Source of the DNA: a virus | Strand: one strand, 5' to 3' | Virus record (IMG/VR): IMGVR_UViG_3300017527_001400 | Span: 1-64,000 of that record | Length of the DNA: 64,000 nt | Shown here: positions 2,733 to 29,423 of the stretch, one piece after another | How positions within the stretch are numbered: the stretch's first letter is position 1 | Layout: each line of letters starts with the position of its first letter | Notes under the pieces: model-generated | What the model was told of the DNA's origin: nothing | The model's database searches: none | Seen by the model: only the letters and a program-made list of their open reading frames with translations | Program-made: the position numbers and the translations under genes

Positions 2733-3248
2733 ATGTTTAATTTTTTTGAATGGATCAAACAGAGCTCGACAATCAGAGGCATCATAGCCCTTGCTACCGT
2801 GCTTGGATATGGCGGAGCTAAGTGGGCAGATGCTACAACGCTTCAGGCGATCATATTGGCTTTGGGTCCGTTGTTCTATGCCATATATAACATGTTCCGA
2901 AAGGACAGCAATGGCACCGGCAATGGAACGGCAGCTGGTATTGCCATAGTTCTTCTCTTGTTTCCTATAGGGGTTCAAGCGGCAAGCATTAACTTAGCAC
3001 CTATGGCCGGTGTAACAGAATATACTGCAGAAGTAGACGGGAATATACAAGCCCCTCCATTCGTAACGAACGGTGATGGAAGCGCAAGTTATAATCTCGA
3101 GCCTCTAGGCCTACCTGATGGTGTCCATGTTTTCCGATTCATGGTAACCGGAACAGATAATGGTGTACCAACCTGGGGAGGTGGTTGGTCAGCCCCTTTC
3201 GAGGCCGAAAAAGTGGGGGTGCCGACGGTCACTGGACTGTCAAATTAA
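2733..3248 (+). CDS. holin-like N-terminus fused to beta-rich (Ig/FN3-like) domain
   Basis: WIKQSSTIRGIIALA holin-like start, 2-3 TM segments, then GLPDGVHVFRFMV...GWSAPF. Confidence 0.5.
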   Translation: MFNFFEWIKQSSTIRGIIALATVLGYGGAKWADATTLQAIILALGPLFYAIYNMFRKDSNGTGNGTAAGIAIVLLLFPIGVQAASINLAPMAGVTEYTAEVDGNIQAPPFVTNGDGSASYNLEPLGLPDGVHVFRFMVTGTDNGVPTWGGGWSAPFEAEKVGVPTVTGLSN

Positions 3249-13474: not shown

Positions 13475-14845
13475 ATGAAATTGAATACCGCAACAAAACA
13501 TCGTATCCACACCCACGAAGGCGCTCCTGCCAAAGCAATCAACGCTGAGTTACAACTCGAAAGGTCTATCATGGCTAATATGCTGTGGGAAAACCAGTTC
13601 TATGAGTCCGGTCAGGCAATTGCCGACAGGATCAGCGACCTTTGCAAGCAGGTCTCTCCCGAATTCATCTCTTCCATGGCAGTAAAAGCCCGGCATAAAA
13701 TGTACCTCCGGCATGTTCCTTTGCTGTTGGTTAAAGAGCTTGCAAATCTTTGCAATGCCAACACCGGTAGCGTATGGAGGATGAAGGCTCAGCTCATTCG
13801 CAGAACCCTTGCTTCTGTTATCAATCGCCCCGATGAACTGTCGGAATTTCTGGCTATCTATTGGAAAGACGGCAAGGTACCTCTGTCCAATCAGATCAAA
13901 CGTGGTCTGTCTGATGCCTTCAACAAATTTGATGAATACCAAATTGCGAAATACAATCGCAAAAGCGACATCACGTTGAAGGACGTACTGACGCTATGCC
14001 ATGCGAAGCCTAAAGATCTTGCACAGTCAGGAATCTTTGAACGGCTTTTGAATGACAATCTGGCAACACCCAAGACCTGGGAAGTTGGTCTCTCCGGTGC
14101 AAAGGCTCATGGCGTATCCAAGAAGGATGTCTGGGAAGACCTGCTTCGTGAAAATAAAATGGGTGGCATGGCAGTGCTTCGAAACCTGCGGAACTTTGAC
14201 CGTGATGGTGTCGATCGAAATCTGGTTCGTGAAGCCATAGTGAAAATGAAACCCTATCGCATTTTGCCTTTCAGATTCATTGCAGCTGAAAAGTATGGGC
14301 CCAATTATTCTGATGTCATCGAAGCCAAGATGCTCGAATGTACCGAAAATATGACCAAGCTCACTGGTAGGACCATCTTGCTGGTTGATGTCTCTGGGTC
14401 TATGTTTTCACCTATATCCCAGCGATCTGATATTAATCGGATGAAAGCTGCTGAAGGCCTGGCTATCTTACTTCGGGAAATTTGCACAGAGATCCAGATT
14501 ATATCTTTCTCTTATCATCCTGTGAATGTTCCTAACAGGAGAGGTTTTGCCCTCGGAGAAGCGATCACGAGGTCTCAGGACAACGGTGGAACCAACTTTG
14601 GTGAAGCTGTTTCTCAGGCATATAATATCCCTCATGATCGGTTAATTGCCATCACAGACGAACAATCTCATGATCGTGTGCCTGATCCTAAACATGGCAT
14701 TCCTTCTTATGTGATTAACGTTGCTTCATATCAAAATGGCGTTGGTTACGGGCCTTGGACACATATCGATGGTTGGTCTGAAAATGTTGTTCGATATATC
14801 CAGTCGCTGGAGGGACTCGATGCACATAGTAAAAATGACATGTAG
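13475..14845 (+). CDS. rsr: Ro60/Rsr TROVE-domain RNA-binding protein
   Basis: THEGAPA start, LWENQFYESG, FDEYQIAKY, TWE, AVLRNLRN, LPFRF, VWA VDVSGSM, ITDEQ, IDGWSE. Confidence 0.92.
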   Translation: MKLNTATKHRIHTHEGAPAKAINAELQLERSIMANMLWENQFYESGQAIADRISDLCKQVSPEFISSMAVKARHKMYLRHVPLLLVKELANLCNANTGSVWRMKAQLIRRTLASVINRPDELSEFLAIYWKDGKVPLSNQIKRGLSDAFNKFDEYQIAKYNRKSDITLKDVLTLCHAKPKDLAQSGIFERLLNDNLATPKTWEVGLSGAKAHGVSKKDVWEDLLRENKMGGMAVLRNLRNFDRDGVDRNLVREAIVKMKPYRILPFRFIAAEKYGPNYSDVIEAKMLECTENMTKLTGRTILLVDVSGSMFSPISQRSDINRMKAAEGLAILLREICTEIQIISFSYHPVNVPNRRGFALGEAITRSQDNGGTNFGEAVSQAYNIPHDRLIAITDEQSHDRVPDPKHGIPSYVINVASYQNGVGYGPWTHIDGWSENVVRYIQSLEGLDAHSKNDM

Positions 14846-15037: not shown

Positions 15038-15430
15038 ATGGACACGGATAGGCTTAAGGAGTTCGCGGAACTCGAAGGTGAAAAGGCAGAAATCAAAAAC
15101 CGTCTGAACGAGATCACCAGGCGCCTAGAGGTAATAGGGCCGGAACTACTCGATGACATGATTGATGATGGTATTCAAAATATCAACATCAGCGGCCGGG
15201 CAGTACATATTCGCAAAGACATCTGGGCTAAAGTCGAAAGCACGAAAGAGCAAGTAGTTAAGGCTCTAAAAGAGTCGGGTCTAGAGGAATATGTTACTGT
15301 TGGATTTAATCACCACAGCATTTCGTCTTACATTCGCCATCAGGTTGAAGCTGAAGAACCATTGCCTGATCCTCTTAAAGGCCATCTATCAGCCAATACG
15401 GTTCTGTCTGTTCGCTCAACCAAAGCATAG
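15038..15430 (+). CDS. conserved phage coiled-coil protein
   Basis: GGAGG RBS; N-terminal coiled coil then small globular domain. Confidence 0.6.
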   Translation: MDTDRLKEFAELEGEKAEIKNRLNEITRRLEVIGPELLDDMIDDGIQNINISGRAVHIRKDIWAKVESTKEQVVKALKESGLEEYVTVGFNHHSISSYIRHQVEAEEPLPDPLKGHLSANTVLSVRSTKA

Positions 15431-15577: not shown

Positions 15578-15853
15578 ATGACATCAAAACAAGTTGATAG
15601 ATTAATTGAAGAAATCGGCAATGTTGCATATAACTTAAAATATTTAGGAAATGGAAATGCTTCAACTCAATTTGGAGCAATTGAAGGCCATTCAATGCAA
15701 GTAAAGGAAGGGCTTGAAACCTTAGCCTCTGCAGTTTCAAGTGCTGGAGGAGAAATAAACATAAGTGATTTACCAACTGCAATCGAGGGTGCTGGTAGAG
15801 ATATTAAAGATGGGCTGCTATCCATAGCGGCTGCGATAAATGATGCGGGGTAA
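15578..15853 (+). CDS. hypothetical protein
   Basis: ORF with LKYLGNGNASTQFGAIE. Confidence 0.55.
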   Translation: MTSKQVDRLIEEIGNVAYNLKYLGNGNASTQFGAIEGHSMQVKEGLETLASAVSSAGGEINISDLPTAIEGAGRDIKDGLLSIAAAINDAG

Positions 15854-15922
15854 GGTAGTCTGGTCTAACCTAGGTGTCTCATAAGCACCTCTTCGCGGGT
15901 TCAAATCCCGCCCCCGCTTCCA
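15844..15922 (+). tRNA. tRNA with CAT anticodon (Met or Ile2)
   Basis: GGTGT-CTCATAA-GCACC anticodon arm, GGTTCAAATCC T-arm, CCA end. Confidence 0.85.
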
Positions 15923-15954: not shown

Positions 15955-16230
15955 GTATTCGAATAGTATTCCATATCATGCCTTCAGAAGCGATCAGATC
16001 CGATTTCATTAATAATAGCATGGGATAGCATGCCTTGCCGCATTATCCAGTTTGCTTCGACCCTATCTTATATAATTCAAATTCTATTTGGATTCGGTTC
16101 GATAAAACTCTACGCAATGCACTATCATCAAATGCAAAATCTCATAGGATCCAATAAAATCCTACGTTTATTATTTCAATACTGTACAAACAAGGATTGG
16201 CCTTAACAGTACAATAGTATTGAATGCTTA
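15955..16230 (+). repeat. NNN-AT pentamer array 1 (putative guide RNAs)
   Basis: cgaAT agtAT tccAT atcAT gccTT cagAA gcgAT cagAT ccgAT ttcAT...; continues up to the RBS of the RAMP gene. Confidence 0.8.
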
Positions 16231-16244
16231 TAAGGAGAGAGAAA

Positions 16245-16997
16245 ATGAAAAAGAAAGCACCAGGACCGTACACATTCAGAATTGTTGGACAGGCAGATTC
16301 CGCGTGGCGCGGGGCAGTACCGGACGATTGTGCAGATCTCAAAGTTGCACCCGAGAAAAATGTAAAGGAGCTCCTTTACATGATCGTCAAGGCAGAAGTT
16401 GAAAGACTCACACAAAAGGGTGATACAAAGGGGGCAGCTGAGGCTGTCAAAAAGTATCAAGATCATTCAAAACATCAATATGCGAATCCATTGAATGTTT
16501 TCAAAAAAGACAAGCAAAACGGTGATATCCCATGTATCGGTGCTCATTGTCTTTATGGTGGGTTTCGTGATGCTGCCGTTGAGCTTTTCCCGCAGTATTT
16601 CTATAAAACTGCTGCAGACCGTGGCAAAAAGCCATCGAACAAGCATCTTAGAAAATATGTTCATGTCCGTCCTTATCATGTTTTCTTGCATCGGCCTTCA
16701 ATGAATGGTAATGGTAAGATTATAAAAGAAGTGGATGGTGTTCATGATCAACATCCTACGCCAAAAGTCGGGGCCTTTTGTCGTTATGAATTTATTGATT
16801 CTCCATTTCAATTTGAATATCTTCTAAATGTTTCCATCGAAGGCCCCTTCAAAAAGTTCCTGGAAAATCAACACGAAGTTAAAATGGCAATCGTTCAATC
16901 AGCAAATGCCGGTCAAGGCGGCGGAAGGGCAGCAGGTTATGGAATGTGGAGGATACTCAAGTGCAAGGTTGAAGATGGCCTGTCGTATACGCCGTAA
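16245..16997 (+). CDS. stand-alone Cas7/RAMP-superfamily protein
   Basis: GDIPCIGAHCLYGGFRDAA resembles the RAMP P-x-I-x(4)-L-x-G-x-x-R helix; C-terminal Gly loop GQGGGRAAGYG; no other cas genes in window. Confidence 0.75.
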   Translation: MKKKAPGPYTFRIVGQADSAWRGAVPDDCADLKVAPEKNVKELLYMIVKAEVERLTQKGDTKGAAEAVKKYQDHSKHQYANPLNVFKKDKQNGDIPCIGAHCLYGGFRDAAVELFPQYFYKTAADRGKKPSNKHLRKYVHVRPYHVFLHRPSMNGNGKIIKEVDGVHDQHPTPKVGAFCRYEFIDSPFQFEYLLNVSIEGPFKKFLENQHEVKMAIVQSANAGQGGGRAAGYGMWRILKCKVEDGLSYTP

Positions 16998-17034: not shown

Positions 17035-17229
17035 ATGTCAAAGATCACTGACACGCTAACAGATGCTGCAGATAAGGTTCTCAATGGTGAAATTCCATTG
17101 AAAACCGGTGAAGTCGTTCATAAACTGGGCAATTCGCTTGGAGTCGCAAAAAACTCCGAGTGTCGTGCACAGGAAATTGGACTGGAAGACGACACAAAAG
17201 CCGCACTGGATGCCATCAAAACAGAGTAA
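17035..17229 (+). CDS. small protein downstream of the RAMP gene
   Basis: AAGGAG RBS, 64 aa, followed by hairpin GGGTAAGCGGCAATTGCCGTTTACCC. Confidence 0.6.
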   Translation: MSKITDTLTDAADKVLNGEIPLKTGEVVHKLGNSLGVAKNSECRAQEIGLEDDTKAALDAIKTE

Positions 17230-17271
17230 ACGGAAACCTTGGGTAAGCGGCAATTGCCGTTTACCCATGTC

Positions 17272-18550
17272 TTCCTATCCTGTGTTGTTCGATAGTATGC
17301 ATTTAGATACCATAGACTCGTATTTTATTCATAAGAAATGTCATACGGTTCCGTTCGATCCCTTATCTCAGGATCCGATAATATGCTATGCATTATAGAA
17401 TTTGCCTTGCTTAGGTAGCATATGTTTCTATTTGATCAATGATTGATTCAATACCATCGAATTGAGTCCTCTGTGATACAATGTAATAGAATAAATGTAT
17501 TTAATATCATTGCATGGAGTTCGATAAGCTTCCATCAAATCATATGCATTATTTTATTAACTGGAATTGAAAAAGATCCCTTCGCATGGAATGTATAGTC
17601 CGCTATAGTACCGTTCCATAATACACGATGCTATGCTTTTGAATAAATAATTTGATCTAGTAATATTTGATTCCGTGAGATGCTATCTTATATTATGAAT
17701 TAATCTCATCTCATCAGATATTATGCGTTTCGATTCGATTTGATCCGATCTATAATCTCATGCCATATTATATTAATCGATAACTCAAGGTCCGATCCCA
17801 TTCGATTCGATGAAATAAAATATTATGCAAAATTAAAATACAATAATTTAGAGTGGGACCGTATTTGAACCTATTCTATTTTATATTATCGCTTTAATAC
17901 TCAATACCATCAGACCGTATTATATGCCTTCGCATCTGATCGTATGACATAATCAATTGCATCGCATGCGATCGCGCATAATTGAACCAAATATTATGGA
18001 ATCAATAATTCAATAACATATCATCAGGCTATATGCCATTGAATATGTTCCGATTTTATCCACCAATAGTATGCCATCGGATAGATTGTTTTGTAATGTC
18101 ATAATCTGCCATTCGCAATGTCTTATTTTACAATCGAACATTATGGCTTGGCTTAGTCTTCCATAAAATATATTATTTAATTGGAATTTGATTTTATGCC
18201 TTCAAGAAGTATCCGATCCAATTCATAATTGCATCAGATTTTATACAAATAAATATTGTCTCGTTTAATTCATAAATGTCATCCGTTAATATGGCTTGGA
18301 ATTTGTTGCTATAGCTACTTTACGATTCGATAAACAATTCCATATCATCCAAATACATTGAATTATATGCAATTAATAATCAATTAAAATTGTTCCCAGT
18401 ATTGTTCAATTGGATGCGATCAGTTGAAATAAATCATTCCATTTTATATGACTCATTGATATCGCTTTCTATGACATGGAATATTTCTCTTCATAAAATA
18501 AAATTAATTGGCACATCACGCTTTCTTATGGGATATAATGTTTTACATTA
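17272..18550 (+). repeat. NNN-AT pentamer array 2 (about 20-25 blocks of ~9-11 pentamers)
   Basis: No credible ORF over 1.28 kb; e.g. 17705 ctcAT ctcAT cagAT attAT gcgTT tcgAT tcgAT ttgAT ccgAT; blocks separated by AAT-type phase shifts. Confidence 0.85.
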
Positions 18551-19243: not shown

Positions 19244-19319
19244 GTGGCCGGAGGCATACGGGTACGCCGATAGACTGTGGCTCTATTGCAAGTGGGTTCG
19301 AGCCCCACCGGTCACCCCA
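19244..19319 (+). tRNA. tRNA-His(GTG)
   Basis: ATAGA-CTGTGGC-TCTAT arm, C73, CCA; base at -1 is T, not G. Confidence 0.85.
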
Positions 19320-19323
19320 CAAA

Positions 19324-19402
19324 AGCCCCTTGGTGAAGTGGCTTAACACGACGGGCCTTGGACCCGTAATTTTCCCAGGTTCGAATCCTGGAGGGGCTTC
19401 CA
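19324..19402 (+). tRNA. tRNA-Gln(TTG)
   Basis: ACGGG-CCTTGGA-CCCGT arm (C33), GGTTCGAATCC, CCA. Confidence 0.85.
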
Positions 19403-19721: not shown

Positions 19722-19817
19722 GCGGGCGTAGCTCAAAGAGGGGTAAGCGCACCCTTACGATAGAGCGCCGTGCCACCAGCACGGAGGTCGGAGGTTTGAC
19801 TCCTCCCGTCCGCTCCA
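19722..19817 (+). tRNA. atypical tRNA-Gly(ACC) with enlarged D-loop
   Basis: GCGGGCG/CGTCCGC-T-CCA Gly acceptor; CCGTG-CCACCAG-CACGG arm; extra GGGT..ACCC hairpin in D-loop. Confidence 0.7.
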
Positions 19818-20018: not shown

Positions 20019-20095
20019 GGGTCCCCATGTTCCAAGGCTGGCGAGTCGGGCTCCAAACCCGACTGAGCGAGGTTCAATTCCTCGGGGATTCGCCA
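20019..20095 (+). tRNA. tRNA-Trp(CCA)
   Basis: TCGGG-CTCCAAA-CCCGA arm, G73, CCA. Confidence 0.85.
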
Positions 20096-21324: not shown

Positions 21325-22101
21325 ATGGCAGGAAAGCTACACGAGCTCTTGGCGGTAGAAGGGGACCTCGAAGGAATCTGGAGGAAGGTTCTCGCTGAAG
21401 CACTCAACACATTCACCAAGAAGAAGAACCATTTCATCGGCTTTGTTCGTCCGCTCGTTATGTTTGCTGATGAACGGCAGAAAGAAAATACCACGGAGCA
21501 AGTTGCTCGGACTACTACTGTCCGTGAAAAACTTGCTTATGTCTGGGTCTCTACCATTCGCTACTTCAATGCGATCGCTCAAAAAGAAAGCACAAATCAA
21601 ACAGCCTGTGCTGATCTCGTGGTTGGTGGAAAGGTTCTGCTCCCACAGATGCCGGCTACTTTATTGCTTGGTTTGGAAAGCCGCTTGCGTCAAGTCCGCG
21701 AAGTATATGCAGGAATTCCTACGCTTCCACCGGGTATCGAATGGAAATTAGATCCTTCGGTGGCAGATGATGTCTATAAATCTGAGGTTCCAGAGGAAGC
21801 TTTCAAAACTGAAAAGGTTTTCAGGGCTCAGGTTTTATACGAAGCTAAGTTCCCCAAGGATGGGGAAGGTGGGTCTTCGTTGCCGGCTCAGGTCGAGAAA
21901 ATCGCTGAGACGGTAAACATCGGTTTGTATAAAAAGACGTATTGGGCTGGCATGCTGTCGACAGCAGAGAAGTCTGAGTTGCTTGAAAAAGTTGACGAAT
22001 TACTTCGCTCTGTCAAACAGGCCCGGCAGCGTGCCAACTCAACAAAGATCGTGAAGCTTGACATTGGCCAAGTTTTATACGATTATATCCATAAGCCCTA
22101 A
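21325..22101 (+). CDS. conserved phage coiled-coil protein (KLHELLAVE family)
   Basis: AAGGAGG RBS; PATLLLGLESRL, GIPTLPP, VKQARQRAN. Confidence 0.7.
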   Translation: MAGKLHELLAVEGDLEGIWRKVLAEALNTFTKKKNHFIGFVRPLVMFADERQKENTTEQVARTTTVREKLAYVWVSTIRYFNAIAQKESTNQTACADLVVGGKVLLPQMPATLLLGLESRLRQVREVYAGIPTLPPGIEWKLDPSVADDVYKSEVPEEAFKTEKVFRAQVLYEAKFPKDGEGGSSLPAQVEKIAETVNIGLYKKTYWAGMLSTAEKSELLEKVDELLRSVKQARQRANSTKIVKLDIGQVLYDYIHKP

Positions 22102-22400: not shown

Positions 22401-22735
22401 TTGCTTAGTGTTAGTGTTAGAAGCCTCAAGCGGCCTCATGGCTTAATCTGTGCTTGTCGCATAGTAACAGTTTATTGAGTCCTCAGTTTTGTCCGGTCTC
22501 TCCTTAAAGCGATTGGCAGTGTAGACTTTAACCATCAAGGTCGCCGGTTCGGATCCGGCCTGGCCCTCCATAAAAAAACTTATGGGCCAGTAGCTCAGCG
22601 GTAGAGCGTGATGAAATTAGTTTTACTACCACTGTTCATGAAGCAATGGAGCGTCCCATTTAGCTCTGTACTTGTAATACAGAAAGCAAATAAAATGGAA
22701 AGGGCGGGTCGAAAGGATATTCGGCCCGTCCATAT
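22385..22735 (+). ncRNA. structured RNA containing a permuted tRNA-like domain
   Basis: T-arm GCCGGTTCGGATCCGGC-CTGGCCC then GGGCCAG-TAGCTCAGCGGTAGAGC; ends in GGGCGGGTCGAA..TTCGGCCCGTCC hairpin. Confidence 0.6.
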
Positions 22736-27758: not shown

Positions 27759-29423
27759 ATGACAACATTTCTTCAGGATCTATACAAAGGTAAACCAAAC
27801 GATCATCACATCTTAATATGGACTCTGAAAGGAAAACGCTCCAAATGGTTTAAGACGGTAAAGGAAGCGGAGGACTTCATAAGTGCCAACCCTGATGATA
27901 CATACTTCGGGGTTGGCACAAGTATTAAGGACTTCGGACCTTCGAAACGATGCACAAAAAGTAAAATTTCAGGAATTCCCGGGCTATATGTTGACATCGA
28001 TATAAAGCCCGATGGCGAAGACAGCAAAGCCCACAAGGGTAAGAAGTATCCCAAAAGTATGAAGGAAGCTCTGTCACTGGTCGAAGGACAGGGCATGGAT
28101 CCAAGCATTATCATAAATAGCGGTTATGGATTACACTGCTATTGGCTATTCGATGATTTCTGGTCATTTGATAATAACGCTGAACGCCAACAAGCTGCAG
28201 AGCTCGAACAACGTATGAACGCCACGATCTTGAACCGTGCGAAACGCAACGGCATGGCGATAGACAGCGTGTTCGACTTGTCTCGGGTTTTGCGGCCTGC
28301 GGGAAGCAATAATTGCAAACGCAAAAAGCCTGCTGCAGTGACTGTACAATCAGACAGTGGTAAAAGATATGATCCTCTTGACCTCGAACGTGACCTCGAC
28401 AAACTCCCTGACAAAAAAATAAAAGATACACATAGAACTTTCTCAGACATAAAGATAGATCCGGGATTAAAGGTCAATCCAAAGGTAGAGATCAAGGCGG
28501 ACGATTTATTCGAGCTATCAGCACAGCAAGATCAATTCAATGCTACATGGGCAGGTAAACGAGGCTTCAAAAGCCCATCAGAATACGATTTAAGTCTGGC
28601 GAATATGGCTGTAGAAGCCGGATGGAGTGATCAAAAGGTCGTCAACCTGATTATCCATCATCGACGCAAAACCGGAGAGCTTGATCCGGTCAAAATGACT
28701 AGAAAAGATTATTTTGATCGAACAATAAGACTTGCAAAAGAAGCTGCTAAAAAAAACGAGTTTGAACGGCTTACAGACAAAATCGTGGCAAGCGGGACGA
28801 TTTTTGATCAAAAAACTATTCAAGATGTTACAAATCACATAAATAAGCTGCTAAAACCTCTCAAGTTTGTAGAAATCAGAAAGCATATCAACGAACCAAA
28901 AGTAGATTATTTTATAGACGTCATTGCACCTGATGGAACGGCTTGGGAGATAAAACTTGAAGGTAGCTTACAAACTAGACTGCTGTTTATAAAAAACCTT
29001 CAAGACAGAACAAATGTACGCCCCAGAATCGGCGTCAAGCAATGGGATGCCTTGTCTCAGGCATTCAGCATCGTTGTTGTAGAGGTTGAGCGATCTCTCC
29101 GGATGGAGCAGATACAAGATGCAACAGTTATCTATGTTGAAAAGTTCATTGCAAATAAAAACGTCAAGCTTAAAGAAGTCTGGTCTTCGGGTCAGCCATT
29201 CAAGCATAAAGGTGAATGGGTCTTAAATGTCAAAAAGTTCCACACATGGTTCACCCTTGCAAACAATGAAGGCGATTACGATCAGAAAAGCCTCAGAGCC
29301 GATCTCAAGGAGGCCGGCTTCAAAGGCATTAACATCTGGCTGGTAGAACATCAAGCAGATGGAAGCTATCTTCGAAAGAAGAAGGCTTATATGAAGATCC
29401 CCAAAAGCTGGCCACTGCCTTAA
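27759..29423 (+). CDS. RepB-type (AEP) DNA primase
   Basis: YVDID, INSGYGLHCYWLF, DLSRVLRPAGSNNCK, SPSEYDLSLA. Confidence 0.85.
   Translation: MTTFLQDLYKGKPNDHHILIWTLKGKRSKWFKTVKEAEDFISANPDDTYFGVGTSIKDFGPSKRCTKSKISGIPGLYVDIDIKPDGEDSKAHKGKKYPKSMKEALSLVEGQGMDPSIIINSGYGLHCYWLFDDFWSFDNNAERQQAAELEQRMNATILNRAKRNGMAIDSVFDLSRVLRPAGSNNCKRKKPAAVTVQSDSGKRYDPLDLERDLDKLPDKKIKDTHRTFSDIKIDPGLKVNPKVEIKADDLFELSAQQDQFNATWAGKRGFKSPSEYDLSLANMAVEAGWSDQKVVNLIIHHRRKTGELDPVKMTRKDYFDRTIRLAKEAAKKNEFERLTDKIVASGTIFDQKTIQDVTNHINKLLKPLKFVEIRKHINEPKVDYFIDVIAPDGTAWEIKLEGSLQTRLLFIKNLQDRTNVRPRIGVKQWDALSQAFSIVVVEVERSLRMEQIQDATVIYVEKFIANKNVKLKEVWSSGQPFKHKGEWVLNVKKFHTWFTLANNEGDYDQKSLRADLKEAGFKGINIWLVEHQADGSYLRKKKAYMKIPKSWPLP

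Follow-up and report, generated by a model that had tools for sequence, protein, structure and literature searches.

A probable divergent VIPR system in a phage genome and the decoding of one of its ten-unit blocks

VIPR systems

The systems called Viral Interference Programmable Repeat (VIPR), which are RNA-guided DNA silencers related to CRISPR, were described in 2026 (10.64898/2026.04.26.720920; 10.64898/2026.04.26.720927; 10.64898/2026.10.15.759431). According to these three papers, they consist of a lone ancestral RAMP protein (Vipr), an accessory vap gene, and vrRNAs of 9–16 five-nucleotide units, each unit being composed of a GGY scaffold and two further letters (NN). Vipr assembles into a filament with one protomer per unit, in which the GGY letters are sequestered, the NN letters pair with double-stranded DNA, and every third target base is skipped. 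The natural targets lie in rival mobile elements, usually in coding sequence, where the skipped base is the wobble position (same three papers). Guides against conserved coding motifs of rival elements have been reported (10.64898/2026.04.26.720920), and VIPR complexes silence by way of genes or their regulatory sequences (10.64898/2026.10.15.759431).

Several repeat types deviate from the GGY/NN form. The methods and the legend to fig. S18 of one paper name the non-canonical repeats NNNGG, YNNNG, and NNNNG as well as staggered arrays without a tail (10.64898/2026.04.26.720920), and the accessible part of another lists GAC/NN, CAC/NN, WGT/NN, and TGH/NN (10.64898/2026.10.21.760802). The available portions of both papers give 9–16 repeats for vrRNAs and 10 for the non-canonical ones (10.64898/2026.04.26.720920; 10.64898/2026.10.21.760802). 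A targeting rule was tested for one type (GGY/NN), and the published text accessible to us contains none for types with three free letters. The discoverers of VIPR stated that the RAMPs share little sequence similarity.

In the Escherichia phage SUSP1, whose type II VIPR is the experimental exemplar, the Vipr gene was located at NC_028808.2 28474–29061. Its product is identical to PDB 36pp, and the GGTNN arrays lie on the same strand.

A lone RAMP gene between two pentamer arrays

The window (the whole stretch of 64,000 nt that was analysed, positions 1 to 64,000 of the IMG/VR virus record IMGVR_UViG_3300017527_001400) contains a comparable arrangement of a gene, a small ORF, and flanking arrays:

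15959..16164, plus strand: upstream pentamer array of the NNN-R-T type, between tRNA-Met and the RAMP gene (HMM)
16224..16997, plus strand: Vipr-like Cas7/RAMP gene, 257 aa (AF2 model, Foldseek, VIA)
17035..17229, plus strand: conserved small ORF, 64 aa, candidate vap-like accessory gene (blastp homologues)
17232..17275, no strand assigned: palindromic hairpin between the small ORF and the downstream array (inverted repeat I2; minus-strand self-match)
17267..18539, plus strand: downstream pentamer array of the same NNN-R-T type, about 25 in-phase blocks (HMM)

The two arrays, on either side of the 257-aa gene, together hold about 26 blocks and are the only such tracts that a phase-tracking HMM detected in the 78,408-nt virus record. 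The same HMM found no pentamer tracts in 595 kb of unrelated control phage loci, save for one 21-nt edge artefact. Between 17230 and 18400, the AT autocorrelation reaches 0.30 at lag 5, 0.24 at lag 10, and 0.20 at lag 15, where coding DNA gives about 0. The 5-nt rhythm far exceeds chance. Within the units of the window, T makes up 90% of position 5, where G never occurs, and A makes up 75% of position 4. The most frequent block length, taken from in-phase runs, is 10 units. Successive blocks are separated by phase slips or linkers of 1–4 nt (2 nt being the commonest) that have no conserved sequence, and a comparison of the linkers revealed neither a conserved non-periodic element nor a structured 3′ tail between blocks. 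An Rfam search detected no ribozyme or Rfam family inside the arrays, the locus has no long direct repeats or CRISPR repeats, and a promoter and terminator scan gave signals that did not exceed those of shuffled sequences.

The 257-aa protein has no match in Pfam, PHROG, or NCBIfam, and family searches returned no Cas7 sequence family. An exhaustive HMMER search of 1.8 billion cluster representatives yielded 47 homologues, while no relatives were found in GenBank phages (tblastn) or in GTDB genomes (pattern scan). The identical protein is also present on a second contig. A single-sequence AlphaFold (AF2) model was too poor for use, and the model built with alignment A1 (the 47 relatives; pLDDT 90.9) was taken instead. 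Foldseek ranked Csm3/Cmr4 best for this model (E 4e-6, probability 1.0), and VIA returned Z scores of 12.4–13.1 over about 165–175 residues against Csm3, gRAMP, and Cmr4. Two long helices (residues 45–85) are inserted after strand 1 in the model, and the sequence shows a conserved C-terminal G-rich loop (G.G..R.AGYG.W) as well as an N-terminal helix-1 motif of the GAxxxGAFRD type. Judged by the model, the protein is a lone RAMP/Cas7 fold comprising an RRM core, a G-loop, a thumb, and a helical insertion.

In its best structural matches, its G-rich loop, and its helix-1 motif, the protein resembles the Cas7 backbones of class 1 CRISPR effectors (Csm3, Cmr4, type VII, and type IV Cas7). Unlike class 1 CRISPR, the locus has no other cas genes, CRISPR repeats, Cas6, Cas10, or Cas5, and the guide period is 5 nt here and 6 nt there. 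An identity as a class 1 CRISPR-Cas (type III-like) system was rejected because of the missing repeats and partner cas genes and the 5-nt period.

The 64-aa ORF has no family match and no predicted DNA-binding domain. Its homologues (blastp) adjoin the arrays or sit between them in L047, L053, L054, L055, and L056, which brings the count to six of the ten loci; examples lie at 3064–3318 in L047, 1090–1362 in L054, and 6133–6399 in L056, with sizes ranging from 64 to 90 aa. The small ORF is a candidate for a new vap-type accessory protein.

The genes around the locus include Ro60, tRNAs, and small ORFs. A Ro60/TROVE-vWA protein (Pfam TROVE, 4e-19) is encoded near the VIPR locus at 13475–14845, and a YrlA-like Y RNA match at 22516–22638 scores 41.3 bits, which is under the Rfam gathering score of 69. 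The tRNA cluster (Met, His, Gln, Trp) occupies 15844–15922, 19244–19402, 19722–19814, and 20019–20095; the tRNA at 19722–19814 was called by Rfam and not by ARAGORN, and about 37 nt separate the tRNA-Met from the start of the upstream array. Two proteins of unknown function are encoded at 21325–22101 (DUF7873, Pfam 4e-61) and at 15038–15430 (DUF7307, Pam3 gp33-like).

Conservation of gene and arrays

The comparison set consisted of nine distinct loci from IMG/VR and JGI metagenomes whose RAMP relatives share 41–49% identity, giving ten loci with the window. Pentamer tracts lie directly beside the RAMP gene in all nine homologous loci (10/10 with the window). Position 5 is T in 83–100% of the units in the eight homologous loci whose arrays exceed 300 nt and in 76% in the short, truncated L059 (122 nt of array), and G accounts for 0–5% at this position across the ten loci. 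Position 4 is A in 52–83% and G in 8–30% of the units across the same ten loci, and C stays at 8% or less there in the nine homologous ones. Since the R-T signature is asymmetric in loci that were oriented by the gene, the arrays lie on the strand of the RAMP gene. In 44 loci of Ro60-linked relative phages no arrays were found, which indicates that the arrays follow the RAMP gene rather than the phage lineage.

Comparison with described VIPR types

The locus resembles the type II VIPR of SUSP1 in several respects. Both are phage-encoded and comprise a lone single-RRM RAMP gene and a small partner gene. Arrays flank the gene in each, with 5-nt units that form blocks of about 10 on the strand of the gene. 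The units of either system consist of fixed scaffold letters in alternation with hypervariable ones, and the decoded letters appear coding-like with a wobble register. Differences are found in the scaffold, which is R-U here (two letters, leaving three free) and G-G-Y in SUSP1 (leaving two free), and in the reading of the target, as statistics favor a contiguous reading here whereas the published rule involves a 1-nt skip. Moreover, a conserved pseudoknot tail is lacking here and the blocks abut with linkers of 1–4 nt, about 26 blocks are present compared with 4 in SUSP1, and the protein has 257 aa compared with 195 aa. An hhalign comparison of alignment A1 with the SUSP1 Vipr gave an E value of 0.32, that is, no sequence similarity, which is expected as RAMPs diverge in sequence. 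The link to bona fide Vipr proteins is made through fold class and locus architecture.

Tandem tracts of 5-nt units beside the vipr gene and on its strand, one of the criteria for VIPR, were found at 10 of the 10 loci. The arrays do not follow the canonical GGY/NN consensus, their unit being NNN-R-T; as the published definition allows a "related consensus" and non-GGY variants, this departure concerns the canonical form only. A conserved structured 3′ tail, another criterion, was not found here, and tail-less staggered arrays are mentioned in the accessible part of the literature. Written as U-NNN-R, the unit is similar to the YNNNG variant named there, as both have a pyrimidine, three free letters, and a purine, although the purine is mostly A here (52–83%) and not G. 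The ten repeats per block are likewise shared with the non-canonical vrRNAs, and the blocks abut as in the staggered arrays, as far as these are described in the accessible text. R-U with three free letters is not among the repeat patterns named in the parts of the published VIPR text available to us. A reading of U-NNN-R as an anticodon-loop mimic (U33-anticodon-R37) was dropped, since the RAMP fold and the VIPR literature explain the pattern.

Periodic arrays that occur only beside the RAMP gene, the RAMP/Cas7 fold, the presence of arrays in nine of nine homologous loci, the ten-unit blocks, and the small partner ORF together point to a VIPR-type system. The locus is probably a divergent VIPR system, the architecture itself being already known as VIPR.

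Family-wide decoding of the free letters

For the decoding, 71 non-redundant guides of 8–16 units were pooled across all ten loci, the window included, and the three free letters of successive units were joined. The joined triplets have on average 4.18 open frames, compared with 3.58 after base shuffles and 3.77 after shuffles of the unit order (z 4.4–4.6; 71 guides); real coding 30-mers have 4.06 on average. Stops that span unit junctions are depleted relative to unit-order shuffles (z 4.5). The depletion recurs, at z 3.2 each, when the window and the other loci are taken separately, and it is abolished when the unit order is reversed. Frame −1 (the reverse complement at offset one) is open in 60 of the 71 guides (47±3 expected), which leaves about 11 with a stop in that frame. 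With stops excluded, codon usage gives a z of 5.2 for frame −1 and of 0.34 for frame +1; the latter frame is weakly enriched for openness family-wide (z 1.3–2.7).

In a register scan, codons were composed of c(N1)c(N0) of one unit and c(N2) of a unit at varied offset. Stops are few (1.8%, compared with 3.6–4.7% at all other offsets) only when c(N2) comes from the unit directly before, with 2 of 244 codons being stops in the window and 11 of 469 in the other loci. When the N2 column was permuted, 28.0±3.8 stops were obtained compared with the 13 observed (p<1/5000). In base composition, moreover, the complements of N1, N0, and N2 correspond to codon positions 1, 2, and 3. A position-only model of codon phase and composition did not discriminate between skip rules, and the junction dinucleotide profiles were ambiguous in this regard.

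The results on junctions, frames, codon usage, and register together indicate that each unit, through its three free letters, covers three successive bases of the target and that the guide runs antisense to the coding strand, its third free letter facing the wobble base. The joined triplets do seem to be contiguous natural sequence that is mostly protein-coding. An earlier note on this DNA had argued from a single block that the triplets join into contiguous natural DNA with a codon frame offset from the triplets, and the depletion of junction stops, the openness of frame −1, and the register scan bear this out. The codon information in the free letters supports DNA targeting, but with a 0-skip rule. 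The 71 pooled guides, decoded along the lines of a check that the note had proposed, form a set that is gene-like beyond shuffles, and no database target was found for any guide.

The probable guide block at 17953–18002

The stretch that the note had singled out (45 bases, 17958–18002) belongs to one block of the downstream array:

17953..18002, plus strand: guide block of ten five-base units, eight of which end in AT (phase segmentation); the 45 bases are units 2–10

The units are TCAAT, TGCAT, CGCAT, GCGAT, CGCGC, ATAAT, TGAAC, CAAAT, ATTAT, and GGAAT. Thus, the 45 bases are indeed nine pentamers of one block, whereas the block as such has ten units and starts at 17953 with TCAAT. It is bounded by 2-nt linkers (aa and ca), and equally built blocks lie on both sides. 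Recomputed, the triplet decoding of 17958–18002 yields TGCCGCGCGCGCATATGACAAATTGGA, with AARAYDKL at offset 1, exactly as it had been given. Five of the six frames of the decoded block are open, among them frame −1, which spells PICHMRARH. The residues AARA come from a GC-alternating run, GCCGCGCGCGCA, which produces Ala and Arg in every frame, and the decoded core, CATATGCGCGCGCGGCA, is of low complexity and partly palindromic. Taken singly, the block is compatible with frame −1 as well as with frame +1.

On balance, the 45 bases probably belong to a single guide (vrRNA) block of ten units in a VIPR-type system of a phage, with contiguous antisense reading, and the AP2 resemblance is probably a coincidence. 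Following the family-wide signal, the block would most likely read PICHMRARH on the reverse complement, or else a non-coding site, and its target may lie in a rival mobile element that is absent from the databases searched.

Searches for targets covered IMG/VR, GenBank phages, plasmids, GTDB genomes, and local phage DNA, and none was found for any guide. A scan with 61 guides under skip rules of 0–3 nt, run on 728 kb of local phage DNA with the vipr genes of rivals among it, gave no matches of at least 80% beyond those of shuffled guides. For the block at 17953–18002, the exact decoded 27-mer does not occur in IMG/VR, and a degenerate scan of the same database for PICHMRARH found nothing. The N2-masked pattern has one match in GTDB genomes, with about one random match expected; it agrees at two of nine wobble positions and lies in the wrong frame. 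The peptides of the block show no similarity to the phage's own proteins in either frame.

A guide directed at a non-coding site of a rival element, such as an operator or a promoter, to which no reading frame would apply, is unlikely for this block. Silencing through regulatory sequences has been published for VIPR (10.64898/2026.10.15.759431), the core CATATGCGCGCGCGGCA with its partial palindrome and low complexity would suit such a site, and the roughly 11 of 71 guides with a stop in frame −1 leave room for targets that are not coding in that frame. However, the majority of the family's guides appear to be coding in frame −1, the block at 17953–18002 is itself open there, and no non-coding site was found by exact search of IMG/VR or by blastn against phages and plasmids.

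It is quite improbable that the arrays are not guides at all and instead give rise to an RNA that serves the RAMP protein as a scaffold or decoy, or act as phased sites for DNA binding or bending, with variable letters that hold no target information. The arrays are AT-rich and have no conserved tail, and the lack of a target for any guide would fit with such a role. A pure scaffold, however, does not need codon structure across unit junctions in one register, the asymmetric R-T signature follows the strand of the gene in ten loci, and the irregular phase slips between blocks leave no long-range helical phasing.

A reading built on the AP2 motif of the note, namely a guide in sense orientation (frame +1) to the HNH-AP2 gene of a competing phage that spells (H)AARAYDKL, fared less well. 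AARAYD is what we take to be a hallmark of AP2 domains, frame +1 of the block is open and spells it, and an AP2-like gene context (...EEAAARAYDKF...) exists in L062 from IMG/VR. The weak enrichment of open +1 frames (z 1.3–2.7) and the reported guides against conserved coding motifs of rivals (10.64898/2026.04.26.720920) are also in line with it. Against this, the codon signal of the family is in frame −1, with codon usage in frame +1 at the null level (z 0.34) and no special offset for that frame in the register scan, and no matching AP2 gene was found. The blastn check that had been suggested, run with the decoded 30-mer, returned chance-level matches only from phages and plasmids (E 2–8), in helicase and other genes and none in AP2/HNH genes. 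A degenerate scan of IMG/VR for DNA encoding AARAYDK[LF] gave six loci, which are identical to the guide at 18–19 of 30 bases; this is what the peptide constraint alone forces and therefore lends no support to an AP2 target. Searched with the Pfam AP2 profile, the genome of the phage itself gave nothing, but the controls were silent as well, so that the search is uninformative. With five open frames and AARA, half of the motif, stemming from GCCGCGCGCGCA, the AP2 resemblance is probably a matter of chance, and a guide to an HNH-AP2 gene is very improbable.

Other probable guide blocks

Frame −1 of the neighbouring block at 18005–18059 spells NGIQAYWMFD, which resembles YGLHCYWLFD in the phage's own primase (28125–28154). 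Among 59 guide-frame peptides compared with the phage proteins, it is the best match and the only one that stands out (z 3.7). The guide shares 17 of 30 bases with the primase DNA of the phage itself, with 2 of 10 shared at wobble positions, and the N2-masked guide has no match in IMG/VR. By its sequence, the block looks like a guide against the primase allele of a rival, which would spare the phage's own copy, and as such it lends side support to frame −1.

In the block at 18376–18430, frame −1 spells SCAHEIGHFC, whose HExxH we take to be a zinc-protease-like motif. The block at 17896–17950 gives NSTQRYARLRD in frame +0, similar to the catalytic-Tyr motif of integrases. Its frame −1 is interrupted by a stop, and a blastn search of phages returned a chance match only.

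Proposed mechanism and meaning

By analogy with the SUSP1 structures, the lone Cas7-like RAMP (16224–16997) may polymerise on RNA from the flanking arrays, with one protomer per 5-nt unit. This presumes that the arrays are transcribed, from the strand of the gene, and processed. A purine-U pair at positions 4–5 would form the fixed scaffold and leave three letters per unit free. As suggested by the statistics of the joined triplets rather than by biochemistry, the free letters of successive units would read contiguous target DNA, three bases per unit and with no skip. The guide would usually be antisense to the coding strand. Of a unit's free letters, the first would pair with codon position 2 and the second with position 1; opposite the wobble base would stand the third free letter of the unit before it. 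There is about an even chance that this clade of uncultivated phages uses a VIPR code of its own, in which a gapped guide with a purine-U scaffold and three free letters is laid antisense on a contiguous target, the third letter being opposed to the wobble position.

For the block examined here, the decoding method is sound, but a single short open frame is no sound basis for naming a target. The clade differs from the tested VIPR type in that it has another scaffold, three free letters, and codon information that extends across unit junctions in one fixed register. The decoding predicts targets that are contiguous, antisense, and in wobble register. If true, this would constitute a second recognition geometry for Vipr filaments, placed between the 2+1 code of VIPR and the 5+1 code of CRISPR Cas7. 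It would also enlarge the range of designs open to programmable Vipr filaments and would bear on how the gapped guide codes of such systems compare with those of CRISPR.
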